This document shows positions 23,908 to 60,999 of a stretch of DNA of 60,999 nt, piece by piece (within the stretch, counting starts at the first letter, position 1; every line of letters begins with the position of its first letter). This stretch comes from a virus (Duplodnaviria > Caudoviricetes). The position numbers were made by a program, and so were the translations under genes. Below the pieces are notes generated by a model. That model was given only the letters and a program-made list of their open reading frames with translations. It was not told the DNA's origin and ran no database searches. The stretch is from positions 1-60,999 of IMG/VR virus record IMGVR_UViG_3300004281_000002; one strand, given 5' to 3'.

Positions 23908-24185
23908 CAGTGTAGTTTATCTGGGTCCGCAGGGAACGGCGCACGATGTTCCTTCTCCGCCGGATGACCGGGATACTCTGGCGTCGTGTCCTGGAAGAGC
24001 ATCGGCTGGCCCTCGGTGATCCGGGTAGGCTGCCGACCCTGGAGCGGCCCGAGCATCAGGTCGATCACGTTGACGGCTTCGTTCGGATTGTCCAGCGGCA
24101 GCTCGGGTACGGGGCTGTGCGGGAAGCGTGCGACGAATTGCTCGCGCACCATGTTGTAGCGCTCGATCAGGTCCTGGGGAATCAT
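23907..24185 (-). CDS. Hypothetical protein, 92 aa
   Basis: ATGA overlap with the giant virion protein gene. Confidence 0.75.
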   Translation of the reverse strand: MIPQDLIERYNMVREQFVARFPHSPVPELPLDNPNEAVNVIDLMLGPLQGRQPTRITEGQPMLFQDTTPEYPGHPAEKEHRAPFPADPDKLH

Positions 24186-44037: not shown

Positions 44038-45363
44038 CTACGCTGCTACGACATAGTTGGGGTCAATGATCCCGCCAACGATCTTGGCGTTCGAGTTGGC
44101 TTGCGTGGTGCCGAGGTTGCAGATCACGCGCATGTAGCCGTAGAACACGTCGCCTGCCGCCAAGCTGTCGTGCTTCAGGATGCCGCCCGTCTGCTCCACG
44201 AAGGCGAGATCGAACAGCCCGAACTTCTGGATCGAATCGTCGTTCAGGAAGATGACCTGGCCGTCCGGGCAATCGACATCTACGAGGAAGTCACGCCCAT
44301 TGTATTCGAGCGTCTGGAAGCCACCGTCCAGCTTCAAGTCGGTGAAGCGCTTTTGCGGCACCAGCACCTGGAGGTAGCGCTCCCGCATGTTGTAGCTGCC
44401 GATCACGGTGGTGATCCGGCGGCCCGACGAGACCTCGGGCAAGTCCATCCCGAGCTGCATCATCGGCAGCGTGATGTCGCCCCCGCCCGCGTTCAGAATC
44501 TTCGCGCGCCAGAGCGGGTTCGCGACCCGATCGATGTCCTGGAGGACGTTCGCGCCTGGATCGTTCACGCCGTCGTCCACGATCGAGCCGAGGCCAGTGA
44601 TCTCCGCCCCGATCGCCTTGTGCCGCACGATCATGTCCCCGACCGCGATGCCGGTGATGCCCGACGCCGGGCTGATGACGCCCGCGGCGTTGGACAGCTG
44701 GATGGTCGGCGGCGAAGTCGACGTGTCGATCCGGCTGATCGTGTACCGCTTCTGGTAGTACGTGCCCGCCGCATCGCCTTGGTCGGAGTCTCCGACGTTC
44801 CCTGCCGTGCCGCTGCGCAGGGTCACGCCGTCCGCGCCCGACACCACGTTGACTTGCATGCCGACGCGCAAGAACTTCACCTGATCGACGGCGATGCCCG
44901 CCGCCGCAAACGTCGCGCCGGTCGGGATGGTGGCGCGCACGCCGGTCCCGTCCAGGTACGACTGCATGTTCAGGTCCTTCAGCATCATTTCCGTGAGGGA
45001 CCGCATCTTGTCGGTCAGCGTGTTTACGAACGCATTGACGTTTCCCTTGCCCTTTTCGATGTCCGGGCCGGTGATATCGAATGTGCCGTAAATGAACTTG
45101 TGACGGACGCGAGCCGTCACGTCCACGTTGAGGATGGGCTCCGGCAGCGAGATTCTGTAGCCACGAGCACCGACCGACTGTGTGTTCACCATGCGAGCGG
45201 GGAATTCGTACGAGTTACCGCCGAACCGCACACCGCTCTCCCCGAACCGCTTGTAGAGCATCGCGGCCAGGTTCTGCTGCTGCTCGACCCCTTCACCGAA
45301 CACCGTCTTCAAGATGGCGGATAGTTCGGATATGTTGTCGATTACCGCAGGGGGCTGGGCCAT
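44038..45363 (-). CDS. Major capsid protein (441 aa)
   Basis: Portal-scaffold-capsid order; LKDLNMQSYLDGTG, EITGLGSIVD, IDR..NPLWRA, LDGGFQTLEYNG, VDVDCPDG. Confidence 0.9.
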   Translation of the reverse strand: MAQPPAVIDNISELSAILKTVFGEGVEQQQNLAAMLYKRFGESGVRFGGNSYEFPARMVNTQSVGARGYRISLPEPILNVDVTARVRHKFIYGTFDITGPDIEKGKGNVNAFVNTLTDKMRSLTEMMLKDLNMQSYLDGTGVRATIPTGATFAAAGIAVDQVKFLRVGMQVNVVSGADGVTLRSGTAGNVGDSDQGDAAGTYYQKRYTISRIDTSTSPPTIQLSNAAGVISPASGITGIAVGDMIVRHKAIGAEITGLGSIVDDGVNDPGANVLQDIDRVANPLWRAKILNAGGGDITLPMMQLGMDLPEVSSGRRITTVIGSYNMRERYLQVLVPQKRFTDLKLDGGFQTLEYNGRDFLVDVDCPDGQVIFLNDDSIQKFGLFDLAFVEQTGGILKHDSLAAGDVFYGYMRVICNLGTTQANSNAKIVGGIIDPNYVVAA

Positions 45364-45378
45364 ACAACTGTCCTCCCG

Positions 45379-46359
45379 CTATTCGTTCTTCCAGCCCAGC
45401 TGATTCTTCAAGCGCTCCTCCAAGATCGACTTCGTGCTGCGGTCCAGCGCCCCCTTAGCGCCCGCGGCTGCCACCACGGGCGAGCCGCCTGGCATCGGCG
45501 GCAGGCTCTTGGCGTCTGCCAGCTTGCCGTTGCGCCAGGTGTTGAGCTGTTGGTTCAGCCGTTCCTGGAGCGGACCGGCCCATTCCGCGAACACGTACGG
45601 GACCTCGCTCATGTCGAGCGTGGGATACTTCCGCGCCACCGCCAGCACGTACTCCCGTGCCGATGGGAGCCACGAATGATCCAGCTCGTGCTCCGCGAGC
45701 AGCCCTTTCAGCTGCTCGACCAGCTGGACATCCGTGTTGCTCAGGCGGGCGTTGGTCTCCGCCTCGGTGCGAGCCGCCCGGTCCGACTCGTACATGGACC
45801 GGAGCTGGCGAACTTCCTGCGCGAGTCCCGTGTCTGCGGGCGCCGCCTGCGGCTGGCCATTGCGACCAGCACGGCCAGCGGCTGCTGCCCGTGCCCGCAT
45901 GTTGCCGGCGCGCTCGAAGAGTTGCTCAGCTAGATCAGGGTTTTCGTCTATGAGTTGCTCCAGAACATCGTAGTCGTTCTTGGTCTGGAGTAGCTCCTGG
46001 TTCTGCTGGGTGAGTTGGGCGATTTGGCCGTTCACTCGTTCCAGCTCGCCTGCGTGCGCCCGCCGGGTGTTGGTCAGGTCAGTCTGCACCTCCCGGAACT
46101 TCCGCCACGGGACATGGTGCTCCTGCACTGCCTTCCCAGGTTGCCCCTCACCCCCTTCGGTCGCCGGAGCGGCCGGCGGTCCCGAGGGCTGCGCAGAAGT
46201 GCCTTCTGTGCGGCCTCCCGTGCCCGGAGCGCCCTCCGAGCCCTTGGGGGTAGGGGTGCCCTGCTGTGAGCTACCTCCCGCGCCTCCTGGGGCGCCTGGT
46301 GCACTAGCCGGTGCTCCAGGGGTCCCGGTCGGCTGGGAATCAACAGCTGCGGCGCCCAT
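45379..46359 (-). CDS. Capsid scaffolding protein
   Basis: Disordered N-terminus, VPWRKFREV motif, coiled coil; lies between portal and capsid. Confidence 0.8.
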   Translation of the reverse strand: MGAAAVDSQPTGTPGAPASAPGAPGGAGGSSQQGTPTPKGSEGAPGTGGRTEGTSAQPSGPPAAPATEGGEGQPGKAVQEHHVPWRKFREVQTDLTNTRRAHAGELERVNGQIAQLTQQNQELLQTKNDYDVLEQLIDENPDLAEQLFERAGNMRARAAAAGRAGRNGQPQAAPADTGLAQEVRQLRSMYESDRAARTEAETNARLSNTDVQLVEQLKGLLAEHELDHSWLPSAREYVLAVARKYPTLDMSEVPYVFAEWAGPLQERLNQQLNTWRNGKLADAKSLPPMPGGSPVVAAAGAKGALDRSTKSILEERLKNQLGWKNE

Positions 46360-46430: not shown

Positions 46431-48749
46431 TCACCCAGCCCCTGGCTGTGGGGCAGTTGGTCCAGCTCCAGTTGTCATCTGTTTCTGAGCATTTGCAATC
46501 AAAGACTCGACGCCAGCCGCTTTGGCCTCCGCCGCGCCTTGAATGATCTGGTCCATCTTCTGCTCCGCCGTCTGATCGGCGGCGTCCTGCGCCTGCTGCT
46601 GCGCCTGCTGATGCGCCTGCACATGGGCCTGGTAGGCTTGTTGGGCGGCAGGCGGCAACGAATCGAAGCCCGGGTCCTTCATTCGTGACTGGTGCTCATG
46701 GAGATGCACGTCGTGGTCGTCCACGGGCGTGAGCTGCACCGGGCCGCCGTCGTCCATCGTCGCGTTCTCCTTCTTCGCGCGCCGTTGGTCCGGGCCGATG
46801 TCAGTATCCCAGCCCTCAATCCCGAGCTGCTCGATCAGCTTCTGCTGTGACACCGGGCTGTCAGGCTTGATGATGCCGGCCTCGATCGCGTCCATGATCG
46901 CCTGCTGTCGCGCCGACTGCGAGCGCCAGATCAGCGTCCCTGGATCGACCGTCACGTCCGTGTTGCCACGGAGATCAGAGCCCTGGAATTCCTGCGCCTG
47001 GTACTCGTTGCCGATGCCGAGCACCTTCACGATCCGTGGCTCACGATAATAACGCTGCGCGAGCAGCAGTTTCTTCCGGTCGCGGTCCGCAACCCAGCGG
47101 CCCCAGCGCCGCAGCCGCGGAATCGTGACCTCCTCGCGGGCCTCCTTGGCGAAGTTCATGGCGATTCCGGAGCGCGTGCCAGCGGGCGCCTGCTGCGCGG
47201 CCATGGAGGCGGCATCCTGCGCGAGTTGATCCATCGACTGGATCGCCTGCTGCCGCTCCTCCATGATCTGCGCCGGCAGCGGCGTGCCCGGAACGACCTG
47301 GGGCGCTGCACCCACCCCGACGAAGTTGTAGAGCACCGTAGCGCCAGGCCGCATGTGCTGGCGGGCCGGATCGAGCCCGCTGCCCTTGGGCGCCAGAATC
47401 CACGGCGAGAGCATGGTCTTGCGGTTCAGAATCACCTGGGCATCGATCCCGTTGACGCGCTTTTGCAAAGGCACCATGTCCTCGGCGGGTGTGCGGCCAG
47501 CAAAGCGTCCCGGGACCACATCGTAGCGAAATTCCGTATAGTTGAAATCTCCGGTGGGAACACCGTGCTCATCGGTGATTGGAAGCGGGCCGCGGTGCAG
47601 AAGCACGCCATTGGCAATGACCGCGAAAAGGCCCTGTGGATATTTCTGCGATGGCTTTTCCTGGTACTTCCGCAGCACGGCTCCATGCTTGAAGAACTGC
47701 GTCGCGCCATAATGGGCTGTTCCTTGAATCGAGGGACCGACGAGCGCCAGCAGGGACGACTCGTAGAAGTTGAGCTGGTCGATTCCCTCCTCGGAGCCGA
47801 CGTACGGACCGAGGTCAGGATAGTTCTCGTCTATCCAGTCAAGATCGGCGTAGAGCGCTTCCCCGCACCAGCGCGCTTCCTTCAGCTTGGCCGCCTTCGG
47901 GTCCCAATAAAAGTTCATGAGCATGCGGACCCGCGACTCGATCTCGCCCTCGGGGATGGTATCGATCGCCGGTTGCCCATCCTCGCCCATGACCGGCTGG
48001 AGTCTAGAGGTCGTGATCGGCGTGCCATCCGGCCAGGTGCGCTGGCGCTCTCCGAGTGCCATGTCGAGCCCGCCACACTGCGGGCACGGCAGGCTCACGT
48101 TCTCGGGCGGCGCCGTTGCGGGACACGTCGGGCATTGTGCCAACTGCTCCATCACCGGATTGCGTACCACCTGCATCTGCGGCACGACGTTCACGCGCCC
48201 GGCTTGCGGATTGAACCAGTCCTCCGCGATCACGGTCCCGGTGAGTGCCGAGATCAGAGACGCCATGTCGCGCAGCTCGTCCTCGTCGGTCACGTCGTAG
48301 AAGCGGCCAACCAGCTTCTCCGCCACCTTCGCCGCCATGAAGTCCTGCGGCTCGTTGGTATTGGGCCGCACCCGCCCTTGCGGCTGGGACCGGGCCAGTC
48401 CCGCCTGCATGATTCCCACCCGCGGCCCGATCAGATTCGTCACTGGCGTCGGGAACCACGACGGCGCGTTCCAGCGCTGGAAGCGCCGCTGCGTCTCGGA
48501 ATACTCGATCCACTGGATGCCACAGTACATGGCGATCGTCTCGAACATCTGGCGTTCGAGCGCCCAGCGAGTATTGTCCCGGCCGGTGTACTGAATCCGG
48601 TCCTGGACCCGCTGGATGATCTCCTTTTCCTCGGGCGTCGGCTGATAGCCCGTGAGCGGTTTCCGCGGCTCGCTGCTCGGCGTCTGCGCCGACCCGCGCT
48701 CGACGCCCGTGTTCGTGGGCGCCGGAGGAAAGACGTTCTCTAACGCCAC
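46431..48749 (-). CDS. Portal protein (772 aa) with internal zinc ribbon
   Basis: MYCGIQW, VTNLIGP, VRPNTNEPQD, LQKRVN, RSGIA, DDHDVHLHEH; podoviral portal pattern. Confidence 0.9.
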   Translation of the reverse strand: MALENVFPPAPTNTGVERGSAQTPSSEPRKPLTGYQPTPEEKEIIQRVQDRIQYTGRDNTRWALERQMFETIAMYCGIQWIEYSETQRRFQRWNAPSWFPTPVTNLIGPRVGIMQAGLARSQPQGRVRPNTNEPQDFMAAKVAEKLVGRFYDVTDEDELRDMASLISALTGTVIAEDWFNPQAGRVNVVPQMQVVRNPVMEQLAQCPTCPATAPPENVSLPCPQCGGLDMALGERQRTWPDGTPITTSRLQPVMGEDGQPAIDTIPEGEIESRVRMLMNFYWDPKAAKLKEARWCGEALYADLDWIDENYPDLGPYVGSEEGIDQLNFYESSLLALVGPSIQGTAHYGATQFFKHGAVLRKYQEKPSQKYPQGLFAVIANGVLLHRGPLPITDEHGVPTGDFNYTEFRYDVVPGRFAGRTPAEDMVPLQKRVNGIDAQVILNRKTMLSPWILAPKGSGLDPARQHMRPGATVLYNFVGVGAAPQVVPGTPLPAQIMEERQQAIQSMDQLAQDAASMAAQQAPAGTRSGIAMNFAKEAREEVTIPRLRRWGRWVADRDRKKLLLAQRYYREPRIVKVLGIGNEYQAQEFQGSDLRGNTDVTVDPGTLIWRSQSARQQAIMDAIEAGIIKPDSPVSQQKLIEQLGIEGWDTDIGPDQRRAKKENATMDDGGPVQLTPVDDHDVHLHEHQSRMKDPGFDSLPPAAQQAYQAHVQAHQQAQQQAQDAADQTAEQKMDQIIQGAAEAKAAGVESLIANAQKQMTTGAGPTAPQPGAG

Positions 48750-48752
48750 CGA

Positions 48753-49202
48753 TCAGCGTCCGTAAAAATCACACACCATATAGACGCTGGTCGCAATCGC
48801 GCCCGTCGCCTCCGTGCCCGCCGTCGTCCAAATACGAAACTTGACCAGCTTACCGGTCACATCCGACGTGGTGATGACTTCACCACCATTGCTGACCCAG
48901 CAGTTGCCATACTGAATCGTGGTCAGCCCGAGCACGCCGAGCGCAGCACTAGTCAGCGTGTCACCGCCGCTCGTATACGTGCCACCATCGGAACGGAGAT
49001 CGGCACGCACCGTAGTGAGTGTACCGGCCGTGTTCCGCGCCACGCACGCGGGGTTTGCCCCCGGACTGGCGATGACACAGCAGCCCGAAGGCGTGGCCGC
49101 CGCCGTACAGTCCGATGCCTTGGTCACGGTCCAGCTGATGGCCGCTTGCGCCGCGACTGCCCAGCCGAGGAACAGTGCGGCCCCGAGTAGACGCTTCATC
49201 AC
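48753..49202 (-). CDS. Secreted-type protein with signal peptide (149 aa)
   Basis: MKRLLGAALFLGWAVAAQA signal; CTAAATPSGCC; YTSGG. Confidence 0.75.
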   Translation of the reverse strand: MMKRLLGAALFLGWAVAAQAAISWTVTKASDCTAAATPSGCCVIASPGANPACVARNTAGTLTTVRADLRSDGGTYTSGGDTLTSAALGVLGLTTIQYGNCWVSNGGEVITTSDVTGKLVKFRIWTTAGTEATGAIATSVYMVCDFYGR

Positions 49203-49555
49203 GACTTCCCTCCTCCGATCATCTCGCCAAGTTTATCCATGGCGCGATCGACTTCTTCCGCCGGGACCGCTCGCCCGGCCTCGTCCAGATAGACTGCTCC
49301 GGTCGCCAGCTTTTGCCACTCCGCCTGGGAGACCAGCTTCCCCGCGACCTCGACCCACACGTTTCCTTGCGCGTCTACGACGGTGTTGATCGGCGCGCTT
49401 AGCGTCTGTCCAGCTGCCGGCACGCCAGAGAACGCTTGGTACGCTGGTGGGGACAAGGCCGCCATGAGGCGGTCCATCAACTTTTCCCGCTCCGCCCGCA
49501 CGGTCGCCAACTCCTCCCGGAGCACTTGACACGTCGGGCATGCACCGTTCTCCAT
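49199..49555 (-). CDS. Hypothetical protein with CxxC and coiled coil
   Basis: CPTCQVLREEL; ATGA overlap downstream. Confidence 0.7.
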   Translation of the reverse strand: MENGACPTCQVLREELATVRAEREKLMDRLMAALSPPAYQAFSGVPAAGQTLSAPINTVVDAQGNVWVEVAGKLVSQAEWQKLATGAVYLDEAGRAVPAEEVDRAMDKLGEMIGGGKS

Positions 49556-49700
49556 CAATCAGCCCTCGCAGCTCGGCATCGATCTCGCGAAGGTCATTCG
49601 CCGCATCCGAGACCCCATGCCAGTCCTCATCCCGAATCTTCGCTTCCAGGTACCAGCGCGTTGCATCCCGCAACTGCGTCAAATGTTCATGTCTTGTCAT
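49233..49700 (-). CDS. Hypothetical protein (MTRHEHL...); only the N-terminal ~50 aa look convincing
   Basis: YLEAKIRDEDWHGVSDAANDLREI motif; the rest overlaps the next gene. Confidence 0.5.
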   Translation of the reverse strand: MTRHEHLTQLRDATRWYLEAKIRDEDWHGVSDAANDLREIDAELRGLIDGERCMPDVSSAPGGVGDRAGGAGKVDGPPHGGLVPTSVPSVLWRAGSWTDAKRADQHRRRRARKRVGRGRGEAGLPGGVAKAGDRSSLSGRGRASGPGGRSRSRHG

Positions 49701-49821
49701 TCTTCCCGATCTTCGTCGGCGGCTCCGGTGATGCCTCAATCGCCTTCGTCATCTGCCCATGCATCACCCAGCCGGCGATTGCTCCAATCGCGAACGACAC
49801 GATGACATACAGCACAGTCAT
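49687..49821 (-). CDS. 44-aa single-TM protein in the lysis module
   Basis: MTVLYVIVSFAIGAIAGWVMH; GGGAG RBS. Confidence 0.6.
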   Translation of the reverse strand: MTVLYVIVSFAIGAIAGWVMHGQMTKAIEASPEPPTKIGKNDKT

Positions 49822-49843
49822 GGCCGATACTCCCGTCGCATCA

Positions 49844-50413
49844 TCACACAGGACTGCTTGCGTCGTGCAAGATCGCATTGGCAAACTTGTAGGCAATACC
49901 CTGAATGGTGTTCGCTTGGTCCAAGCCGTTGACAATCTTTCGTGCGTTGTAAAAGTCCGTCTGTGTGTCGTTGAGATATTTCGGCAACCCCACGCCAGTA
50001 AAATCCCCATCGCGCATGCCACCGAAAATAATGTCAGTCGCCACCTGGAGATCGAGTGCCGTATCCGCAACCTTGACCAGCTGCCCATTGAGTTTCAGCT
50101 TGTCGTCCTGCTTCTGGTAGTTCTGGTACCACGTAAGCTGCACGAAGCCACGCCCGTAATAGATTTGATTGTACGGGCCATCCGGCACCCCGTAGGGCTT
50201 CCCCTGCCCCTTGCCGTACTCCGCGATAGGCTGCATGGTCTGCGCCGTCTCCCAAAACGTGGTCGCCAGAAGATACGCGGTCCACCGATCATCCCAGCCG
50301 AGCATCTCGGCATTGTCGAGCAGTGCCGTTTGCCCGTCCACTTGCGGCTGATTCATGGAGCCCGAGAACAAGGAACCACGCACGGAGTCGAAATAGTATT
50401 TCCGAATAATCAT
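49844..50413 (-). CDS. Endolysin, glycoside hydrolase family 19
   Basis: AYLLATTFWET, YYGRGFVQLTWYQNY, ARKIVNGLD. Confidence 0.92.
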   Translation of the reverse strand: MIIRKYYFDSVRGSLFSGSMNQPQVDGQTALLDNAEMLGWDDRWTAYLLATTFWETAQTMQPIAEYGKGQGKPYGVPDGPYNQIYYGRGFVQLTWYQNYQKQDDKLKLNGQLVKVADTALDLQVATDIIFGGMRDGDFTGVGLPKYLNDTQTDFYNARKIVNGLDQANTIQGIAYKFANAILHDASSPV

Positions 50414-50425
50414 AATGGCTCCTTC

Positions 50426-50716
50426 TCACTCCTTGGGTGCTTTGCAGTATTCCAGTTTCTCGAGCAGCTTCGTGGACATTTCACTCTGCCGTTGCACGGC
50501 AGCAACGAATTGCTCCTGCATCGAAGTCAGGAGCTGTGTGCGCTTGATTTCGTTGTCCTCGATATTGTCCAGCGTGGCGCCGAGCCGAAACAGCACGAAC
50601 CAGAGCAAGATGCCAGCAAAGACCGTCGGCACACCGAGCTGCGTCGTGACCGAGATCAAGGGCGCCAACCAGGACGGCTGTGCAACCGGCTCAGTCACGG
50701 GACCGTCCCGAGACAT
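50426..50716 (-). CDS. Holin candidate (96 aa)
   Basis: [18 protein letters not shown] plus coiled coil; immediately upstream of the endolysin. Confidence 0.65.
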
Positions 50717-51333
50717 TGGACGACCGCTGTCAGGCTCAGCGTGGTATGCATGGCGAAATTATCGGTCACAATGAACTGGATGATGTAGCTCTGCGGTGGC
50801 TCGTTCGTTGGCCGATCGTTGAGCAGTGCGAGCTGATGAATGTCCTGAAATTGTGAAATCTCCACCGTGTACCCGCCCCCGGTGACCTGCTCGCCAGGGG
50901 CACACGACGCAATCGCCGTCACTAAATCGCCTTTGAGCAAGCGTCTGGTAAAATTGGTCGTTGCTGTCTGTGTGGTGATCGTCACACTCCCGCTGCCCGA
51001 TTCCCCGGTCGGGCCGGTCGGACCAGTCGGTCCCGGCGGCCCAGGCACACCCTGAAGGCCAGGCGTGCCCATCGCACCAGGGGTACCAGGCGCCCCAGGA
51101 ACACCAGGGAGCCCCGGAGAACCCGGTGGACCGAGCGGGCCAGGCTCGCCCCTGGCCCCTGGCGTTCCTGGGGCCCCCGATGGCCCCTGTGGTCCCGTTG
51201 ATCCCGTTGGTCCTGCTGGGCATAGATGGCACTTTCTCAACAGGTGCAGAGGAACGTTAATGCATTGCGTTCCAGCCGACGCCCACCACGGGAGAGACGC
51301 CAGCAGGACGAATGCCATCGTGATCGAGCGCAT
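50695..51333 (-). CDS. Collagen-like (Gly-X-Y) protein with signal peptide
   Basis: >20 contiguous GXY triplets; C-terminal [14 protein letters not shown] domain. Confidence 0.9.
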
Positions 51334-52144
51334 AGGTTCCTGCTACGAACACCATAAACCCGTGTGGCAGTGGTGCTCGAATCCCGAACGCCAAATCGAA
51401 CGTGTGTCCGTCGCCGTAGGTCACATCGAACAGAGAGAGGGAATTCTGTAGTCCCTTGCTGCCAAGAAACTCAAAGACGAGCGCGACCGGGCCAACGAGC
51501 GCCGAGGCCCCAACGCCATAGCTCACACCGGATTGATTCAGGTATGACAGGTCCAACTCACCCGCCGCCCGCGCGTTGAGCTGCATCCGCTTGCCGATGG
51601 GCCACGAAGCCGCCACGCCAGGCGTCAGCCAGTACGTGTCGAGGCCAAACCCCCGGCTCGAATCACCAGTCGGAAAGATCGCCTTCAACGTCAACGCGAG
51701 ATTAGGATGGAATTGATACTTCAGGCGTGCGCTCAGATCGCTCACCCCCGCCGCCGAGAACGTGGTGCGCCCAACGAATGGCCCGATGCGGACATGCACA
51801 TCCACGTCCTCTTGAATGACGGGTATCACCAGACTCGCGTCCAGATGGTCGGTGATGCCGTAGCTCGCCGCCACAACCATGATGGTCGTCCGCACGTCAA
51901 AGTGCACGCTTGTCTGCGCCCGCGGAGCAGCATGCAGCTGAAGCACACCGGTCTCAGCCAGCGCGTTCGTATTGAGATTGCCCTGCCCAATGGTGTCCGG
52001 GTGGTCTAGGAAGATCGGCCCCAAGGGCTCCTCGCTGGAATCAATCACCCCATCCATGTTCGCAGGCGAGGTCGGAGACAACACCGCGCTCTCCTCGATG
52101 TTCTGGAGGCAAAGCGGAAACACGAGCGCTGCCGGATGCATCAT
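51257..52144 (-). CDS. Outer-membrane beta-barrel, MetA-pathway/COG4313 transporter-like
   Basis: [39 protein letters not shown], alternating beta strands, terminal aromatic (VGVGW). Confidence 0.7.
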
Positions 52145-53109
52145 GGCGTCGCTCCCAAGCCCCCTTTCCACTGATCGAGCGACTTGCCATTACTCGTCAC
52201 AGTGAAGCCAGGAACGCCACCCGTCGCCATCGTTGTGACCGTCTGTGGCGTGCCACGATTCGTCCACGCAATGCCGTCCTTCGAGGAGTAGCACTGGAAG
52301 GTTTGCGCGCCCGAGCGCGTGATCGCCACCCAATCCCCCGACGAGAACGCCGAGGCGGTACGATTCTGCTCGGTGAGTGAGGCCCCGCTATCAGCCACCT
52401 GGAACGAGAGCCAGCCCTGGTTCAGAATGCAGCAGGCGGCATCCTGGGCCGCCGGGACGACCAGGCACGCCCCGACCATGGACCCGGTGTCTCCGCTCGC
52501 CCAAATGACCTGTCCTTCAGCGTAGCTGTCATTCTGAGGCTGAGCTGCATTCCAGACAGCCAGTCCAACCGTCCCCACCTGCCCCGTCGCCGCATTGCTC
52601 GTGATGACCGGCGCGATGGAGTAGAACGTGAGCGGGGTTGTCCATGATGCACCGAGCGCCGGTCCTGCACGGTTGAAGACATCGCTCACCGGCCACGCCA
52701 CCGTGGTTGTGCTGGTCGTGCTGGCGGTCGTGGATGTGGTGCTGGTCGGACCAATCGTAGTCGTGGTCGGAACGGTTGTCGTGCTTATCGGAACGGTCGT
52801 AGTCGTCGGCGGGACGGTCGTGGTGCTGGACGGCGACGGAGGAATCGGTGCGAACACCTGCGATGTGAGCTGCGCCGGCCCCATGTCCCCATTCACCGTT
52901 GGTCCCCGATCCGGCACCATAGGCGAAGTCATCTTCTCCCCCACTTCCGCCCCTTGCCCAACCGGGTACGCAATCGCCGGCCCTTCGCCCCGCGCGTACG
53001 TCGAAGCCAGCACGAGCAGCCAAATGAGCCAGACGAGTATTCCCACCGTCAGCGGGCTAGACAGCGCATCATAGAGCCACTGACGGGCGCTGTGAGACCG
53101 ATACTTCAC
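52141..53109 (-). CDS. Membrane-anchored protein with Thr-rich stalk and beta-sandwich head
   Basis: N-terminal TM; STTTVPPTTTTVP... stalk; SDVFNRA..LGASW head start. Confidence 0.8.
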   Translation of the reverse strand: MKYRSHSARQWLYDALSSPLTVGILVWLIWLLVLASTYARGEGPAIAYPVGQGAEVGEKMTSPMVPDRGPTVNGDMGPAQLTSQVFAPIPPSPSSTTTVPPTTTTVPISTTTVPTTTTIGPTSTTSTTASTTSTTTVAWPVSDVFNRAGPALGASWTTPLTFYSIAPVITSNAATGQVGTVGLAVWNAAQPQNDSYAEGQVIWASGDTGSMVGACLVVPAAQDAACCILNQGWLSFQVADSGASLTEQNRTASAFSSGDWVAITRSGAQTFQCYSSKDGIAWTNRGTPQTVTTMATGGVPGFTVTSNGKSLDQWKGGLGATP

Positions 53110-53513
53110 TGAATCTCAGGTCCGAGAAAATAATCCACGTTCACGCTGCACGTGGTGCAGGCAGTCACGTTGATCCGGTAGTCACAAGCAGGATAGACCG
53201 TGTTCAACGCCGCCGACGCACCCGCCGCCATCACGGTCGAGCTGTTCGCCACCAGCGCCCACGTGGTGGTCGGCCCATTGCAGTTGATCTCCAGCTGCGC
53301 GGTCGAAGTCCCGGCACCTCCCGTGTTCGTCATCATCACAACCAGCGTCCGGTATTTCCCGCGTCCGATCCGCAGGATATTCGCGGACACACCCGTCGCG
53401 GTCTGCGCCGTGACGACGTTGCCGGTTGTAGCGAGCGACGTGTCAATGATCGCCGCCGTCGCTGTTCCCACCAGTAACCACAGTCCCAGAATCGTGCACC
53501 ACAGCCGTCGCAT
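53106..53513 (-). CDS. Secreted-type protein with signal peptide (135 aa)
   Basis: MRRLWCTILGLWLLVGTATA signal; Thr-rich beta protein. Confidence 0.8.
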   Translation of the reverse strand: MRRLWCTILGLWLLVGTATAAIIDTSLATTGNVVTAQTATGVSANILRIGRGKYRTLVVMMTNTGGAGTSTAQLEINCNGPTTTWALVANSSTVMAAGASAALNTVYPACDYRINVTACTTCSVNVDYFLGPEIQ

Positions 53514-53670
53514 GGTTCGCCTCCATCATCTCTCGCGCTAGGGCCAACGCACCCTGCAACCGTTCGATGAGGATGGTCGCTTGCCGTAACCCGAGCCGAA
53601 GATTATCTCGCCGCGCAATCTGCTCGTTCAGCTGCGCTTCGAGTTCCTTCATTCGCACGTCCATATCCAT
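53443..53670 (-). CDS. Small coiled-coil protein (possible fibre chaperone)
   Basis: MDMDVRMKELEAQL...ERLQGAL; TGATG coupling. Confidence 0.65.
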   Translation of the reverse strand: MDMDVRMKELEAQLNEQIARRDNLRLGLRQATILIERLQGALALAREMMEANHATAVVHDSGTVVTGGNSDGGDH

Positions 53671-54413
53671 CAGATCACCTGTGCCGACAGTCGGAGTCGT
53701 GTGCCTACTGGTGGTGTTGTACCTATCCATGCCTCTGCCAGAATCTGCGATGCACGCAGCTCGGTCGGCGTCCCTGAGTCAGTCACCCAGACCTCGGCCA
53801 CGTCCTGGGACGCTCGGAGAGCGGTCGGGGGCTGGTTCTGCATCCAGACCTCGGCCACCGCCTGCGAGACCCGGAGCGGCGGCTGATCGACGCTCCAAAC
53901 CTCGGCTACGTCCTGGCTCGCGTAGAGTCCGGTGAACACGTTATCGACCAGCACATCGATGGCATAGTAGGAGCCGGAGAATGAGCTGGTCGGATACCCG
54001 GTCCCGGTGCCCGCGATGGCATAGCCAATCTGGGTCATCACATAGGCACCGCCACTGCCGATCGTCTTGCCGACGAACGACGTGTAGGCCTGGTAGTTGG
54101 CTGTGTTATGGGAAACGCAGACGCGATAGACGAGGTTGGCCGTCAAGGCGATCGGGGTCGAAAGGGTGAGGGACTGCCAGCCCGAAGCGGTCTCACCCGA
54201 AAAGGCTTGCTGGCCGACCTGGGCCTGCGTATCGGTGCGGTAGATGGTCGCAGTGTGGGTGCCGGTGTCGGTAGAGAGCTTGTTGAAGTAGACCCCTTTG
54301 AGCGTGTTGCCCGCGACCGTGGTGTAGAAGTCGCAGCCCAGGTTGAAGGGGCCGTTCACCTGCGAGGACGGATTGGGAGGCGCCCCGGGCTGGAAGAAGG
54401 AGCCGTCGGCCAT
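53670..54413 (-). CDS. DUF4082-like domain plus four ASQxVAEVW repeats (tail-associated)
   Basis: NLGCDF...GVYFNK...GTHTATIY...FSGETASGWQ...YAIDV. Confidence 0.75.
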   Translation of the reverse strand: MADGSFFQPGAPPNPSSQVNGPFNLGCDFYTTVAGNTLKGVYFNKLSTDTGTHTATIYRTDTQAQVGQQAFSGETASGWQSLTLSTPIALTANLVYRVCVSHNTANYQAYTSFVGKTIGSGGAYVMTQIGYAIAGTGTGYPTSSFSGSYYAIDVLVDNVFTGLYASQDVAEVWSVDQPPLRVSQAVAEVWMQNQPPTALRASQDVAEVWVTDSGTPTELRASQILAEAWIGTTPPVGTRLRLSAQVI

Positions 54414-54414
54414 C

Positions 54415-55896
54415 TTAGAGCGTCACTCGCTGGCCGATTTGGAGCGCAGTCAGGGCGGCGAGCGTCCAGGTGGCGCCGGTGTTGGGATCGACCGCATCGA
54501 CCCGCGCCAGATAGGTCCAGGTCGACGACACCGCCGTATCGACCCCCGCGACTTCGGTGGCCCCGGACTTGACACGCACCTGACCTTGCCGCGTCCCGGC
54601 GTCGCTCTTCCTGATGTAGACCTTGGAGACGACGCCCAAGATGGCGAAGGGGGTCACCGGAAGCGGCCCGACCGTGTAGAGGTCTTCGTCGTTCACGTTG
54701 CTGGAGGCGACATAGTCGGTGTCGCCGTTGGCGAGGGCCTCGGAGACCGAATAGACGTTCCCCGAGAGCGTCAAGAGGCTGTAGGGTTGCGCGGTGGCGC
54801 CCGTCGGTGTGGCCGGATTCGGGAAGCCCGAGGCATAGGTGCGGCTCTGGGTGTAGTACGCGCCGGTGCTGGAACTGGCGAAGACGGGTAACGAGATGTT
54901 GTGATTGAGCGCAAAGTAGTAGGTGATCCCCTGCGCGAGCGCCGGGCCAGCGGCAAAGGTGAAATCGGTCGCTCCCGATGGGTTGGTCACGACAGCGGAC
55001 GTCCCGAGCAGCGCACCCGGCGCACCCGCGCTGCCCGTGCTGTCGTACAGTGCTGCCTGCATGTTTCCAGTCAGCGCCCCGAGCGTCAGCGTCGCCTTGG
55101 TGACGACGCCACTCCTGGTCGGGGTGAATCCCGTGAAGCGCACCGTGTCGGACGCATAGCTCACGTTGCTGCTACTGGAGCCTCCCGCGACGGTCCCGGT
55201 CGCCGCAGGGATGGGGGCGAACTGCTTCTGCGCAGTGTCCGCCATGGCCGGGACGCAGATGGCACGGCAGTCCCCGACCCAGGTGTTCGGCGCGGCGCCG
55301 CTACCCGAGAAGAACAGCAGATCGTCAGCCACCTGGTTCAGATTGGCTGCCGCACCCCCGAAGACGATCACGTTGGCGTAGTTGTTCGCCGTGCCGCCCC
55401 GGCTGTTGAGTCCGGTCGCGACGAAGGTGTCCGACACCGCGCCATTCTTCCGCACGCGCAGCTCGCCGGCACTGCCATCGATCACCACCTTCACCTGGAA
55501 ATGGGTCCAGACGTCCTGGGCGAAGGCAGCAGAATAGGTAGCGAGCACGGTACCAGTCTGAATCCCACTCTTGAGGACGATGTTACCACTCGACTCGAAG
55601 ACGATGGTGCATTGCGCCGTCGCGCCATCACGGTAGGTGATGTAATATTCGGGGCTCGTGCCCGAGAGCGCGGCGTAGCGGTAGTAGGCCATCGCGACGT
55701 AGAGCGTGGACTCGTTGGAGGGAATGGTCTTGGTGAAGTAGATTCCCGGCGTGGCCGCAGCCTTGAGCGCCTGCCCGGTCCCGAAGCGACCAGCCTGGAA
55801 TCCGTTGGTCCCAGGGCCGTAGCTATCCCACACGCTGCGTGCCAGGTCCGCAGCGGTGGAGTAGTAGTCGAAGCCATCGGCCACGATCCATGCCAT
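54415..55896 (-). CDS. Tail fibre / virion structural protein (493 aa)
   Basis: ADGFDYY N-terminus; ConA-like core; DPNTGATWT C-terminal motif. Confidence 0.75.
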   Translation of the reverse strand: MAWIVADGFDYYSTAADLARSVWDSYGPGTNGFQAGRFGTGQALKAAATPGIYFTKTIPSNESTLYVAMAYYRYAALSGTSPEYYITYRDGATAQCTIVFESSGNIVLKSGIQTGTVLATYSAAFAQDVWTHFQVKVVIDGSAGELRVRKNGAVSDTFVATGLNSRGGTANNYANVIVFGGAAANLNQVADDLLFFSGSGAAPNTWVGDCRAICVPAMADTAQKQFAPIPAATGTVAGGSSSSNVSYASDTVRFTGFTPTRSGVVTKATLTLGALTGNMQAALYDSTGSAGAPGALLGTSAVVTNPSGATDFTFAAGPALAQGITYYFALNHNISLPVFASSSTGAYYTQSRTYASGFPNPATPTGATAQPYSLLTLSGNVYSVSEALANGDTDYVASSNVNDEDLYTVGPLPVTPFAILGVVSKVYIRKSDAGTRQGQVRVKSGATEVAGVDTAVSSTWTYLARVDAVDPNTGATWTLAALTALQIGQRVTL

Positions 55897-57884
55897 CAGA
55901 GCAACCCCCGTATCGTCCAGGTCGGATCACCGACACCGCTTGCCGAGACGACCTCGATCAGATCACCGACATGGATCGTCACCGGCGTCGGGAACGTGAA
56001 TCCTCCTGTAGTCGCACCCGACACCCAATGAATCGTCCCAACCACCACCCCGTTCACCTGAATGTTGAAATCGACCGTGCCGCCCGGTGCCGTCTTGCAC
56101 AGTGCCCAACTGCCACCAAGGCCACCAGGAAGCGTGAACGCATAGACCGCCACCCAGGACCCGATGACACCGCTCGATGGCGAGAGCCCTGCGACCGCGC
56201 CTGCCAGCAGGTACGAGGAATTCGTCCCGACGCCCGCCTCCGCATCCTCCTCCAGCAGCACGGAAGAATACTCCAAATAATACGAGATCGGATACGTTGA
56301 TACAGTCGTCTCGCTCGCGTTGTTGAAATTGCGGCACTGAATAATCAGCTGATGCGACGCCCCAACCGCAAGGTTCTGCCACGGCAAAAAGAACGGGACC
56401 TCGATCGGGCCAGTCACCCCATTCGCGTCCGCCGGCTCGAACAACTGGAATTGCCGCCGCAACGTCTTAATCAGGACGCCATCGAGATAAAAGTACACGC
56501 TCACGAAACAGTGATGCAGCACATCCACGGTCGGATTGGTTATCGTATTGAGGAAGAACCCCTGCACCGCTCCGATGAAGTGCCCCCGTCCCGTCGCCAG
56601 CGGCGTGAAGTTCACCGTGTGGAAGTTTGTCGTCGCGTTCGGAATCAGGTAATACGGCGCCCAAAACTCATCGAGAATCTTCGCCATCGGATCGCGGGCG
56701 ATGCGCAGCGCGGTCTGATACGCGTTCGTCACCAGGCCCTTCGCGTTCACCGTGAACGTCGGCAGATGCGTCATGTCGCCGTACGTTCCGGGGGGCACAG
56801 GCGGCACCAGATCGGGGAGACTCAGGTTCGGGTAGATGCCGATGATCGTCGGACCGGTGTTCGGCCCGACTCCCGCGATTCCCGTCGCGAAATCGATCGC
56901 GACGTTCGCCGCCACGGAGAGCCGGCCATCCACCAGCACCGTGTAGGCTGGGACACGGAGGCTATCACCGTAGTTCCCCGGCACCACACCCGTCGCATTG
57001 AGCGGATTCCCCGGCGTCCCTGGCTGCGCTCCGGCGCCGTCCAGATTCACCCAGGCGGTGGCGTTGCGGCCCTGGAAATGGCCGCCTGCGTACTGGATCG
57101 TCCCGACGAGCGTCGAGAGCGCCGGCCCGACCACGATCCCCGCGTCAAGCTGCAAGCGCTCCACGAACGAGGACGGAACCGCTCCGGGCGCATGGAGCGC
57201 CATCACGCCCGCCGCGGTCAGCTCCGCCACTTCCCCGCTCGGACTGCTCCAGGTGACGCCGCCACTCGGCGCATAGGCGCTGAGCACGGTCGGGCTCGCC
57301 ACGAAGCGCGCGGTGCGAGCGTTATTCAGATAGAGCGACGCACCGTCATTCAGCCTGACGTTGCGGCCCGCAGTGAAGGGCCACAACTCATTGAGGCTGG
57401 CGCTCTCCAGCCAGTAGCCGATCGTGGTGTCGGGAGGAGAACCAGGAGGAAGATCAGTCGGAGCGGGAGCACCGCCGATCGTCACCCACTTGGTGCCATC
57501 GTAGAACTGGAGCGCCGTCCCGGTCCATTGGAGCGTGCCAGCCACCGGGAAGATCGACCCAATCGGCTTGAGCATGAGACCGACGACTTCGACCCCGTTC
57601 GGCCCTTCGATGTGCAGCCGATTCCCGGTGCTGATCGACAGACCACCCGGCACCCCGAGCGAGACGCCCCGGCCAGCACTCAGCGGCTGGAGCGCAGTAC
57701 CCGTGTCTTGCCAGTATTGCGTGCCCCCACCACCCCCTGCGCCCCCTGGCTGCCAGCTGAAATTCCCCGTGGCGTCGGACGTGATGACGTAACCCGACTG
57801 CGCTCCCGTGGGCATCTGGAACGCATCGCTGATGACCCGGTGGAAGCGGTGCTCGTCCCAATCGTGGATGACGCGATGGGACAT
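55896..57884 (-). CDS. Tail fibre-like protein (662 aa)
   Basis: GYVITSDATGNFSWQ; two GxYGD...PxYTVxxxG fibre repeats. Confidence 0.75.
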   Translation of the reverse strand: MSHRVIHDWDEHRFHRVISDAFQMPTGAQSGYVITSDATGNFSWQPGGAGGGGGTQYWQDTGTALQPLSAGRGVSLGVPGGLSISTGNRLHIEGPNGVEVVGLMLKPIGSIFPVAGTLQWTGTALQFYDGTKWVTIGGAPAPTDLPPGSPPDTTIGYWLESASLNELWPFTAGRNVRLNDGASLYLNNARTARFVASPTVLSAYAPSGGVTWSSPSGEVAELTAAGVMALHAPGAVPSSFVERLQLDAGIVVGPALSTLVGTIQYAGGHFQGRNATAWVNLDGAGAQPGTPGNPLNATGVVPGNYGDSLRVPAYTVLVDGRLSVAANVAIDFATGIAGVGPNTGPTIIGIYPNLSLPDLVPPVPPGTYGDMTHLPTFTVNAKGLVTNAYQTALRIARDPMAKILDEFWAPYYLIPNATTNFHTVNFTPLATGRGHFIGAVQGFFLNTITNPTVDVLHHCFVSVYFYLDGVLIKTLRRQFQLFEPADANGVTGPIEVPFFLPWQNLAVGASHQLIIQCRNFNNASETTVSTYPISYYLEYSSVLLEEDAEAGVGTNSSYLLAGAVAGLSPSSGVIGSWVAVYAFTLPGGLGGSWALCKTAPGGTVDFNIQVNGVVVGTIHWVSGATTGGFTFPTPVTIHVGDLIEVVSASGVGDPTWTIRGLL

Positions 57885-58268: not shown

Positions 58269-58538
58269 CTAGTGGCGCTTGGCGGCGTGAGTGGATGGTT
58301 TGGCCTTCGCCGGATGCTCCGGCTGCTCCTGAGGCACGGGAGACGCCTTCGCGGCCCCTCCTGGCTGTAGGCTCGCCAGGTGCGCCTCGTGCGCCTTCAC
58401 CTCCTCGGCCCACCGTGCCCGCTCCTCGGCATGCGCGGTGAGCAGCTGGTCGAGCGCCGCACGCGCCTTCGCGATCTCCTCCTGGAGATCAGCCAGCGTC
58501 ACCTTGGCGTTATGGGTCGCCACCGGATCGTCGCTCAT
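58269..58538 (-). CDS. Coiled-coil protein (89 aa)
   Basis: GGAGGT RBS; ATGA overlap. Confidence 0.75.
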   Translation of the reverse strand: MSDDPVATHNAKVTLADLQEEIAKARAALDQLLTAHAEERARWAEEVKAHEAHLASLQPGGAAKASPVPQEQPEHPAKAKPSTHAAKRH

Positions 58539-58984
58539 GCGACCTCCACCTCGGGCTGCTGCCGGCGCACGAAGTGCCGGCGCAGGATGCGGTCGTTGAA
58601 CGTGAACTGGACCTTGGGGGTCGCCGGCAGCACCCGCAATGCCACGAGGAGCGCTTCCCGCACGGAGTCTACGTCAAGATGCGGGAAGCCGTACGCCATC
58701 GCCTGCTGGAACGGCACGCGATATGCATAGGCAGAGACCCCTCGCGCGCTCAGCCAGGCGACCAGCTCGCGCCGCTCCAACTCGCGCTCCGGGGTCTGCC
58801 GGTTCCGACGCACCGAGCGGACGTAGCGCCCGACACACTGGAGGGCGTCGAGCAGGACGGCCCGGTAGAGCCGCGCAGCCGGCGTGCCCATGTCCACCAC
58901 GTGGAGGTCCCGCCACTGCACCGGCACGATGCTCTCCGGGTCCCCATCCCCATACGCCTCGCGCGCCACCCCCACCCGGTGCAT
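58535..58984 (-). CDS. Hypothetical protein (149 aa, MHRVG...)
   Basis: RLYRAVLLDAL...AWL...F...LDVDSVREAL pattern; start uncertain. Confidence 0.65.
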   Translation of the reverse strand: MHRVGVAREAYGDGDPESIVPVQWRDLHVVDMGTPAARLYRAVLLDALQCVGRYVRSVRRNRQTPERELERRELVAWLSARGVSAYAYRVPFQQAMAYGFPHLDVDSVREALLVALRVLPATPKVQFTFNDRILRRHFVRRQQPEVEVA

Positions 58985-58992
58985 CGCCCACG

Positions 58993-59202
58993 CTACCGGG
59001 GACGCCGTGCCCGCCGCACGAGCGGGCGCGGCCCGGAGAGCACGACCGCACCGCGGAAGCCCTTGGCGAACTTCCGCCCCTCCGGGTCCAGCTTCTGCCG
59101 CGGATAGCGCGGCTTCATGAGCGTCGACAGCTCGCTGATGTTGTCCGCAACCGGTGGCGACACCATCGGCTGCGGCCGATCCGGGACCTTCATCGATCCC
59201 AT
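58993..59202 (-). CDS. 69-aa basic protein containing a copy of the capsid N-terminal peptide
   Basis: PPVADNISELSTLMK vs capsid PPAVIDNISELSAILK; AAGGGA upstream. Confidence 0.55.
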   Translation of the reverse strand: MGSMKVPDRPQPMVSPPVADNISELSTLMKPRYPRQKLDPEGRKFAKGFRGAVVLSGPRPLVRRARRPR

Positions 59203-59508
59203 CGCCGCAGTCCCTTCCGGTCCTGGCGCGCGAGCACCCGCTCCTCAGTCGCAGAGCGCGGCTCGACAGAGCGCTGCGGGACGAGCCGTGGCCCCTGCAT
59301 CTGGCGCAAGTGCCGCTCCGGCTTGCGCCCGGGAATGGGGTTGGGCGCCCGCACGGACAAGCGTCTACCATACGGAGACCGCAAGAAAAAGGGGAGAGCG
59401 CACAGCCCGCATCTTTCCGTGAATGGATGCGGGCCTAGAAGCAAGATGCAGACGCGACTGAACCCGCGACCCGTCTACGGACGAGCCTACGCGACTCCGA
59501 TCCTTTTC

Positions 59509-60999
59509 CTACCAGGGCCATTCAGGCATCTCGTCCAGGCCCTGCTCCCACGGCTCGTCCGCCAAGTGCACGTTGTCCTCGCCGCGCCGATCCGGCGTGC
59601 CGACTGCGTACTCACCCCAGCTCGATCCCTTGCCGTGCTTCAAACGCTGCAGATCGCGCTCGACGCCTTCCCACGCATCCTTGGTCATCGCATTCGGATA
59701 GACCGGCCGCGCTCCACGCTCCGCGAACTGCTCAGGCACGTGACGCGGCGGCAGCCCGGTCTGCAGCATCGGATACTCGGTGTGCACCCGGAAGGCGATC
59801 ATGCACGCCACCGCGAGGTCGTCGTGCGTGAGTCCTTCCGCACGCCCACCAAACTCCGCGTACTGGAATTCGAGCAGCTCAAGAACGGTCGCCGGGTCAC
59901 GCACGAGTATCTCCTGCTCGCTCAAGCCGTGACGGAGATTGTCGATCAAGAGTGGTCGCGTCCGGTACGAGGTCGACCAACCGTAGAAGTTCGTGACGGC
60001 ATGAGTCACCTTGTCGACGCGCTGCCAGACGTAGATGCGCGGATACTGCCGCGTCTTCAGCTCCTCGACTACCGAGAAACCATGCCCGCTGTTCAGCTCG
60101 GGCGCGACGACCGCCTCATTATAGTAGCGGCCGAGACCGTCGAGCACCTGCGCGAACGGAATCGGCGGCAGATGCCCGTGCCAGACCGCCACGACCTCTC
60201 CCACCGTCCGGCTGAACACCACCGCCGCCGCCGGGTCGCCACCTTCCTGTCCACCCGAAGGGTCGGCCCCGATCGTGTACTCATGGTCCGGGACCGGCCG
60301 CCGGTAGATGCGCAGCCGCCCACCCCGGAGCGCCGTCGCCTGATTCGTCGCCGTCGACCATTCACCCTCGAACCGCTCGCTCGCTTCCCGGAGCATCGCC
60401 TCGTGCATCGGAATGAGCACGCTGCGCGGGAATGCGGGCAGCCCCGACACGATGAACGCCTCCGCCGCCGTGATCGGGTACTCCTGATTGAAATACTCGA
60501 CCTGGCCGGCACACTGCGTCTGAATCACGTACCGCCGCCACCAGCACTGTTGCGGTGTCAACCCGAACTTCGCCACCACCTCCTGCTCGTCCGGCTCCAG
60601 CTCAAGCCGCCCATCATGCGGAATCGGCAGCTGGTACTCCTCGATCATCGGCCACCCGATAAACACCGGAGTGAAGCCGCTGATCCCCTCTTCCGCCCTG
60701 AGCCACTCGGCATGGAAGCTGTTGCCCATGCCGCGAGCCGTGCTCTCGATCACCACACCCGACTGCGGCGTCGGCGGCACCGCCTGAAGCGTGGCAACCA
60801 GCGTCTGCGCCGCGTTCGGAAACGCCGCATATTCGCTGAGATGCACCCACTGTAAGGTCACGCCACGCCCACCCTCCGTCGACCCCACACCCGCCGTCGC
60901 ACACGTGATCGTCGAGCGCAGCTGTAACTCCCCGTCATCACACCGAATGGCGTCCAGCACCAGCTCGTCCCGCCGAGCCACACCGAACTTGATCGGCAA
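59509..60999 (-). CDS. terL: Terminase large subunit (5' end outside the window)
   Basis: GRG.T...VHLSE (Walker B), IESTARG (coupling motif), FNQEYP, IGADPSGG, APELN, HDDLAVA (RNase H-like nuclease). Confidence 0.95.
   Translation of the reverse strand: MPIKFGVARRDELVLDAIRCDDGELQLRSTITCATAGVGSTEGGRGVTLQWVHLSEYAAFPNAAQTLVATLQAVPPTPQSGVVIESTARGMGNSFHAEWLRAEEGISGFTPVFIGWPMIEEYQLPIPHDGRLELEPDEQEVVAKFGLTPQQCWWRRYVIQTQCAGQVEYFNQEYPITAAEAFIVSGLPAFPRSVLIPMHEAMLREASERFEGEWSTATNQATALRGGRLRIYRRPVPDHEYTIGADPSGGQEGGDPAAAVVFSRTVGEVVAVWHGHLPPIPFAQVLDGLGRYYNEAVVAPELNSGHGFSVVEELKTRQYPRIYVWQRVDKVTHAVTNFYGWSTSYRTRPLLIDNLRHGLSEQEILVRDPATVLELLEFQYAEFGGRAEGLTHDDLAVACMIAFRVHTEYPMLQTGLPPRHVPEQFAERGARPVYPNAMTKDAWEGVERDLQRLKHGKGSSWGEYAVGTPDRRGEDNVHLADEPWEQGLDEMPEWPW

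Follow-up and report, generated by a model that had tools for sequence, protein, structure and literature searches.

Several described systems resemble the locus reported here, each in part. In phage T4, the CTS, a short N-terminal tag, sends small and often basic proteins (IPI-III and Alt) to the scaffolding core and loads them into proheads, and these internal proteins end up inside the head together with the DNA, according to the sections of PMC3012670 that deal with them. The present locus has a small basic protein with a short N-terminal stretch that may serve as such a tag. This stretch differs from the CTS in being a copy of the N-terminus of the major capsid protein (MCP) itself, and it stands on only one protein besides the MCP. 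The two systems also differ in that no phage prohead protease was recognized here: a Pfam scan of 54 window proteins, which remote homologues could escape, returned 0 protease families.

A second precedent is provided by phage 80alpha, in which the capsid protein, the scaffolding protein and the host protein L27 share an N-terminal sequence, and the host Prp cleaves both capsid and scaffold. As far as the sections of PMC5744158 on this leader extend, other phages place the same motif on non-homologous proteins, and a role with a common chaperone has been proposed as well. Here, too, one conserved sequence opens both the MCP and another protein of the head module, in 11 of 11 records that cover both regions. 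The second protein is, however, a polybasic peptide of 57-69 aa rather than a scaffold, and the F|A cleavage site given in those sections of PMC5744158 does not occur, there being no F-A dipeptide in residues 1-36 of the small open reading frame (ORF) or residues 1-24 of the MCP.

The interface between scaffold and capsid offers further points of comparison. In SaPI1, CpmB has a C-terminal end similar to that of the 80alpha scaffold and uses it to compete with that scaffold, and a docking element of the scaffold/capsid interface is thereby reused on a small protein. The present locus would be the mirror image of that case, as the scaffold end is copied in CpmB and the capsid side of the interface is copied here. 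In P22, a C-terminal helix-turn-helix of the scaffold binds D14, E15 and E18 of the coat N-arm helix (PMC9965877), and in 80alpha a C-terminal helix-and-hook of the scaffold binds the N-arm helix alpha1 (PMC5644958), in the parts of these two accounts devoted to the contact. The stretch copied here is also the start of an acidic N-terminal amphipathic helix, the target of the scaffold C-terminus in those phages; it has no sequence relation to either, and its binding to the scaffold is suggested by analogy. Finally, the portal-vertex protein of P74-26 is a small accessory head protein with an N-arm at the inner face of the MCP and at the DNA near the portal. It has a globular domain and, in the passages of PMC12407722 on its structure, is not described as MCP N-arm-like, whereas the small protein described here is predicted to be disordered.

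Neither a short N-terminal tag nor a shared leader is new in itself. A copy of the tip of the MCP N-arm on a protamine-like peptide was not met in the literature: full-text searches, the partial coverage of which is no proof of novelty, returned no account of a small basic protein that carries a copied MCP N-terminus.

A small polybasic gene in a podovirus-like genome

The window, that is, the whole stretch of DNA analysed, comprises 60,999 bases at ~65% G+C and carries nearly all of its genes on the minus strand. In the direction of that strand, the order is the large terminase (TerL), the small ORF, several genes of no known kind, a DUF4082 protein, a collagen-repeat tail fibre, an endolysin-like protein, the portal, a scaffold-like protein, the MCP, and large virion proteins, one of them with an SLT transglycosylase domain. 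This is the layout of a podovirus-like phage with a separate scaffold. A related record classed as complete measures 65.9 kb and has direct terminal repeats.

TerL (59509..60999, minus strand; phrog_2, E 4.3e-17) lies directly upstream of the operon that contains the small ORF. Its frame reaches the last base of the window, and the terminase profile matched over the C-terminal two thirds only; the record probably lacks the 5' end of this gene, and contigs with an identical small protein reach 63.2 kb. The head module consists of the portal protein (772 aa, 46431..48749, minus strand; phrog_156, E 4.7e-15, with a weak P22_portal match), the scaffold-like protein (326 aa, 45379..46359, minus strand) and the MCP (441 aa, 44038..45363, minus strand; phrog_14242, major head protein, E 5.6e-45), and no protease gene intervenes among the three. 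The scaffold-like protein has no family match in Pfam or PHROG and is named from its composition and its position between portal and MCP.

Other regions of the genome deserve brief mention. Proteins of 1598 aa (27403..32199, minus strand; no Pfam or PHROG match) and 1039 aa (24182..27301, minus strand; a sub-threshold LPD38 match only) adjoin the internal virion protein with the SLT domain (32199..34346), and these two are probably ejected core proteins. In the replication region, a 507-aa protein (19071..20594, minus strand) has a weak, sub-threshold match to GHKL ATPases (HATPase_c).

The small ORF (58993..59202, minus strand; 69 aa with the stop included) is a coding, conserved gene. The GC content of its three codon positions is 0.70/0.54/0.88, and the GC3 signal enters its frame at about 59200 and leaves it at about 58990, so that the frame switches at both ends. 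The sequence GGAAGGGA stands 8 nt upstream of its ATG. Nine bases past its stop codon, at 58984, lies the ATG of a 149-aa gene (58535..58984, minus strand), which is delimited by the GC3 frame switch near 58990 and by its sequence, and has no family match in Pfam or PHROG. Three close homologues of the small ORF share 65-79% identity with it, and an exhaustive profile search of 1.84 billion representatives returned 16 proteins at E<=1e-3, all of them 48-66 aa long, with no longer or fused form among them. When sub-alignments of the small proteins were used as queries, two viral loci and four metagenome loci were recovered, all belonging to close relatives. The preliminary description had named presence in related phages as a check, and the coding GC3, the close homologues and the 16 representatives support a real, conserved gene.

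The most constant property of the family is its charge. The protein of the window has a pI of 11.8 and a net charge of +11, and all 21 aligned family members fall between +10 and +13, at pI 11.3-12.0; in the C-terminal half, each of the 21 has 7-12 Lys and Arg residues and 0-2 Asp and Glu residues. This polybasic, Pro/Gly-rich part (58996..59094, minus strand; alignments A3 and A4) contains the best-conserved columns of the family, KF.KG[FH]R....G.RPL.R..[KR]R, in keeping with the earlier remark that the remainder of the ORF is rich in Arg and Lys. The protein is predicted to be disordered throughout, as its AlphaFold2 (AF2) model (pLDDT 65.8, pTM 0.18) has two helices of four residues each and is otherwise unstructured. 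The model stored in the ESM Atlas has a pLDDT of 0.37, which makes its structural neighbours meaningless, and no usable neighbour of the protein was obtained there. There was also no match among 50,697 cultured-phage records.

Because of its size and its place between TerL and the portal, the small ORF was compared with gpW of lambda, the gene of which lies between TerL and portal too. No Pfam family matched at E<=0.01 and no PHROG family matched, which places the protein outside the curated lambda gpW head completion family; with 0 Pfam matches, a gpW-like or ribosomal-protein-like identity was ruled out.

Directly upstream of the small ORF is a second tiny, conserved basic ORF of ~54 aa (59190..59354, minus strand), which starts with GTG in the window and with ATG in the relatives L011 and L022. 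Its stop overlaps the start of the small ORF by 13 nt, which suggests translational coupling. Residues 2-20, i.e., the 19 past the start codon, are identical in L011, while about ten of the codons differ synonymously; no likeness to other sequences of the window was detected (best E 0.008). The spacer between TerL and this tiny ORF (59355..59508, minus strand) contains a terminator-like hairpin at 59467-59448 and, in a comparison with the L011 and L022 upstream regions, a block conserved in three relatives, which reads ..CCCTTTT.. followed by CTATGGTAGA about 15 nt before the upstream ORF. The block may be a late promoter or a leader; a sigma-70 scan found nothing.

The match to the start of the major capsid protein

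Residues 16-30 of the small ORF (59113-59157) read PPVADNISELSTLMK, and the MCP, the gene of which lies 13.8 kb away, starts with MAQPPAVIDNISELSAILK. This likeness had been described beforehand, and the positions, letters and codons proved to be as stated. The DNISELS motif is encoded by GAC AAC ATC AGC GAG CTG TCG in the small ORF and by GAC AAC ATA TCC GAA CTA TCC in the MCP gene; five of the seven codons differ, all of them synonymously, and the earlier conclusion, that the peptides are alike without any recent copying of the DNA, is upheld. Part of the difference reflects biased codon use early in the MCP gene, where GC3 is 0.72 in codons 1-25 (45289..45363) versus 0.88 elsewhere and ATA, GAA and CTA are used. 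Such a low early GC3 is as expected if selection for weak mRNA structure acts on a highly expressed gene.

The similarity was evaluated by several comparisons. Pairwise BLASTP of the small ORF against the MCP gave 12 of 19 identities (E 1e-4); when all 1164 six-frame ORFs of the window were searched, the MCP was the best non-self match, at a marginal E of 0.031. A capsid-free profile of the small-ORF family also found the MCP N-terminus as its best non-self match (E 0.0021; next 0.34), and in the reverse direction a profile of four MCP N-termini found the small ORF at E 2.8e-6 (next 4.5). In hhalign, 21 small proteins aligned with 35 MCPs at 95.3% and E 2.2e-8 over 23 columns that begin at MCP residue 1, with no homology past residue 23. 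The preliminary description had spoken of a motif of the N-terminal arm. That motif is indeed shared, but the homology is wider and extends over residues 1-23 of the MCP in full, counted from its start codon. In the window, residues 13-36 of the small ORF, MVSPPVADNISELSTLMKPRYPRQ (59095..59166, minus strand), are homologous to MCP residues 1-24 (45292..45363, minus strand) by hhalign, BLASTP and the two-way profiles.

A joint profile of the motif found two places in the window only, the MCP and the small ORF (next best E 0.53). Other explanations of the likeness itself were considered and rejected. The two-way profiles, hhalign and the recurrence across records rule out chance similarity, and the joint profile detected no third carrier of the motif, be it scaffold, portal or internal proteins, in the window. 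A duplicated translation-initiation cassette was also ruled out: in five of five lineages, the 45-nt stretches that precede the two start codons resemble each other no more than shuffled sequences do.

The alignment in the window begins at Met13 of the small ORF. Close relatives have no Met at this position, which makes Met1 the likelier start. The clade of the window thus has an extension of 10-12 residues before the copy, whereas in most family members the copy stands at the very N-terminus.

The copied region of the MCP can be placed on a structural model. No match to the MCP sequence was found in the PDB; its AF2 model (pLDDT 79.3, pTM 0.76) gave 181 Foldseek matches at E<=0.001, the best of them to phage capsids (A-1(L), Mic1, SU10 and HK97) with a probability of 1.00. 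Together with phrog_14242, these capsid matches assign the MCP to the HK97 fold. Residues 1-7 of the model have a pLDDT below 50 and a helix spans residues 11-32, so that the copy takes in the flexible tip together with the opening turns of the N-arm helix. When the hhalign columns are mapped onto this model, the copied residues lie within the helical N-terminal arm, and the amphipathic helix bears acidic residues, D9 and E13 in the MCP and D20 and E24 in the small ORF.

The motif is well kept among capsid proteins. In the 35 aligned MCPs, K19 is invariant (35/35) and D9 is conserved in at least 90%; in the small family, K30, which ends the motif, is likewise conserved in at least 90%. Among 79 MCP homologues, DNISE is exact in 47, D(H/Q)ISE occurs in 10 and DNVSE in 3; 5 are fragments without the N-terminus, and 14 have a diverged motif or none. 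The latter 14 have at most 46% identity, with the exception of P0080 at 55%. Among the variants P0085-P0097, N-termini such as DNASELQ, DIASEIG and DLATEVG occur. As a separate observation, the sole MCP relative in 185,579 species genomes (69% identity) is on L033, a 3.1-kb contig of a Gemmatimonadota metagenome-assembled genome. This is a weak hint at Gemmatimonadota as the host phylum, and the contig could be a binning artefact.

The main rival reading is a shared N-terminal leader for a common protease, of host or phage, or for a chaperone. The mature products would then be an MCP that begins near residue 20 and a basic peptide of ~40 residues. The 80alpha precedent fits such a leader, and so do the sharp limits of the homology, which runs from the initiator Met to column 23 and no further, and the motif-ending Lys in both families (K19 and K30); a removable leader would also tolerate the extension of 10-12 residues in the window's clade. 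Against it stand the 0 protease families in the 54 Pfam-scanned proteins, with none encoded between portal, scaffold and MCP, and the absence of the F-A dipeptide of the Prp site. Moreover, the copy runs into the modelled N-arm helix (residues 11-32), which is a structural element in solved capsids. On this evidence, a common leader is judged unlikely, and it is still to be taken seriously as a competitor.

Pairing of the two genes and drift of the copy

Each of the 11 related records that reach far enough upstream of the MCP contains both genes (the window, the L011/L007 contig, G001, G002, G003, L005, L008, G006, G007, G009 and G010); these records represent nine distinct pairs, in which the small ORF and the MCP are 4.0-17.5 kb apart. 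When profiles of the small family (A2, A4) were run against 10 related records, all 10 yielded the MCP N-terminus, at E 3.4e-7 to 5.2e-4 per record. Eight MCP-bearing fragments, with 0.4-7.6 kb of sequence before the MCP gene, yielded no small ORF. Four of these have ~5 kb there, enough for a compact layout like that of L005 to be visible, so that in them the layout is the long one or the small gene is absent. Two candidates with divergent MCPs, P0097 and P0093, led to no viral contig, and a third, P0087, led to L042, a 9.6-kb fragment that has 1.4 kb upstream of the portal and no small ORF there.

The two copies of the motif differ in how tightly they are held. The MCP has DNISELS[AT][IL][LM]KTV[FY] in nine of nine pairs, whereas the small protein has, pair by pair, DNISELS, DNVSELA, DNISETA, AGISELA, QNISELA, DNVSELA, ENVSELA, QDASVGS and QEPSEMG. 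The check for covariation that had been proposed is uninformative as a result, since the MCP motif is invariant in these pairs and the small-protein copy varies alone. The L004/L005 and L008 lineages have degenerate copies (QDASVGS, QEPSEMG) while the MCP there keeps DNISELS. In 13 of 15 further representatives, all below 50% identity, an N-terminal ..[IVLP]S[ES].. ..LK is kept near residue 8, in the register of the MCP; in the other two, P0012 and P0019, the copy is absent, and their starts may be miscalled.

These patterns bear on the age of the copy. The survival of the motif in 13 of 15 representatives, the unrelated untranslated regions (UTRs) and the synonymous codons indicate that the copy is old and has long been under purifying selection at the peptide level; this selection is deduced from synonymous codon differences and protein conservation only. 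In other words, motif retention and unlike UTRs suggest a copy that is old, confined to the coding part, and less tightly held than the MCP original.

The same patterns can be read as the relic of an old duplication of a 5' end, from capsid to small gene or the reverse, with no partner shared with the MCP and with the helix retained for some general benefit, for example to solubility or expression, or as a simple amphipathic helix. The homology does begin exactly at the start codon; the small copy drifts while that of the MCP does not, and is lost or degenerate in some members; and the best-conserved columns of the family are in the basic part rather than in the copy. However, a relic would not readily account for the persistence of the motif in 13 of 15 representatives below 50% identity, and neither the UTRs, which have no trace of a duplication, nor the synonymously different codons of the motif speak for it. 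A mere relic thus appears quite unlikely.

Gene order adds a further element. In L005, TerL is followed by tRNA-Thr, the small ORF, a single short gene, the portal, the scaffold and the MCP, and the small ORF lies ~0.4 kb upstream of the portal, which makes the small gene part of the head module. The spacing between small ORF and MCP in L008 is 4.2 kb, as in L005, and judged by this spacing its small ORF is probably also ~0.4 kb upstream of the portal. Relative to L005 (2465..2830), the lineage of the window has ~9 kb inserted between the small-ORF operon and the portal (48753..57884, minus strand). This insert holds a 662-aa and a 493-aa protein, the DUF4082 protein, the collagen-repeat tail fibre and the endolysin-like protein. 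The tRNA-Thr gene of L005 (2014..2084, plus strand; anticodon CGT) is between TerL and the small ORF, and the window is without any tRNA gene.

The place of the small gene between TerL and portal, so close to the latter in L005, would fit a surrogate of the N-arm, i.e., a copy that binds where the N-arm tip of a neighbouring MCP would, for instance at the portal vertex, where a penton and its arms are lacking. The ring of DNA that encircles the portal would be contacted by its basic tail. In P74-26, the N-arm of the portal-vertex protein passes through an aperture and pairs with the P-domain of the MCP, and its Lys2 enters the minor groove of the DNA, in the structural passages of PMC12407722; in P22, maturation converts the N-arm helix into a loop that reaches into the neighbouring subunit, in the part of PMC9965877 on this transition. 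However, only the first 23 residues are copied here and not the whole arm, and the P74-26 protein has a globular domain whereas the small protein is predicted to be disordered throughout. Such a surrogate is considered distinctly improbable.

A candidate docking peptide for the scaffold

The scaffold itself evolves quickly, falling to 26-36% identity in lineages in which the MCP remains at 63-71% (alignment A8). Its C-terminal end is conserved (..D...........L....GW), with D306, L317, G322 and W323 among 13 invariant or nearly invariant columns. When scaffold residues 200-326 (A8) and the small protein (A4) were modelled as a complex, the score was 0.00 in a run without controls, which speaks neither for nor against binding.

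The reading to which the evidence tentatively leans, as a possibility and by analogy with described phages, is that the copied residues are a docking tag for the partner of the MCP N-arm, probably the scaffold, and serve to load a DNA-binding peptide into the procapsid. The 23 residues would act as a docking or address peptide, recognized during procapsid assembly by whatever recognizes the start of the MCP N-arm. By analogy with P22 and 80alpha, this partner would be the scaffolding protein, with its conserved C-terminal end as the site of contact. In this way, the polybasic tail would become enclosed in the procapsid and would stay with the packaged DNA, either to neutralize charge or to be ejected alongside it. 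The partner, the incorporation into heads and the DNA binding of the small protein are inferred. A related formulation, in which a free-standing, scaffold-binding copy of the N-arm tip is an address label or competitor by which a protamine-like DNA-binding peptide rides the scaffold sites into the procapsid, is rather doubtful.

The restriction of the MCP-homologous stretch to residues 1-23, from the initiator Met, favours the docking tag, and so do the two-way profile matches, the recurrent pairing of the genes, selection on the peptide, the conserved scaffold end, the gene position, the charge and disorder of the small protein and the CTS precedent. The eight MCP-bearing fragments with no small ORF found count against it, and so does the drift of the small copy, as a peptide that binds the same site would be expected to be equally tightly held, and this copy is less conserved than the MCP original and is degenerate or missing in some members. 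The 10-12 extra residues before the copy in the window's clade imply that a free N-terminus in register is not required. Moreover, the presence of the motif on only two proteins of the window means that the copy is not a general cargo tag.

A peptide able to dock onto the scaffold could also act on assembly itself, competing with the MCP for the scaffold and setting the timing of nucleation or of scaffold release; alternatively, it could be a defence decoy that titrates a host sensor of the capsid N-terminus. Assembly is known to be redirected when proteins compete for one scaffold/capsid interface, the title of PMC5644958 naming competing scaffolding proteins (SaPI1, 80alpha), and the peptide is small and, if translationally coupled in a late operon, probably abundant. 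The polybasic tail would have no role in either version, however, and nothing in the data points to a defence context; all records examined have the gene in the head module. Regulator and decoy taken together are very improbable. Of the functions proposed in the preliminary description, head targeting and a shared processing site are the two best candidates, whereas the decoy is without support.

If the docking tag is correct, the capsid side of the scaffold/capsid interface would be reusable as an address label, which would complement the CTS of T4 and the scaffold-tail copies of satellites. The copy would then mark a family of protamine-like internal peptides in uncultured, podovirus-like soil phages of ~61-66 kb, and it would supply a natural 23-residue peptide for loading cargo into HK97-fold particles. 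If the shared processing leader is correct instead, the principle of 80alpha and Prp would be extended to an unrelated group of phages and would point to a new protease. Either way, a family without a home in Pfam or PHROG gains a specific hypothesis within reach of co-expression experiments.
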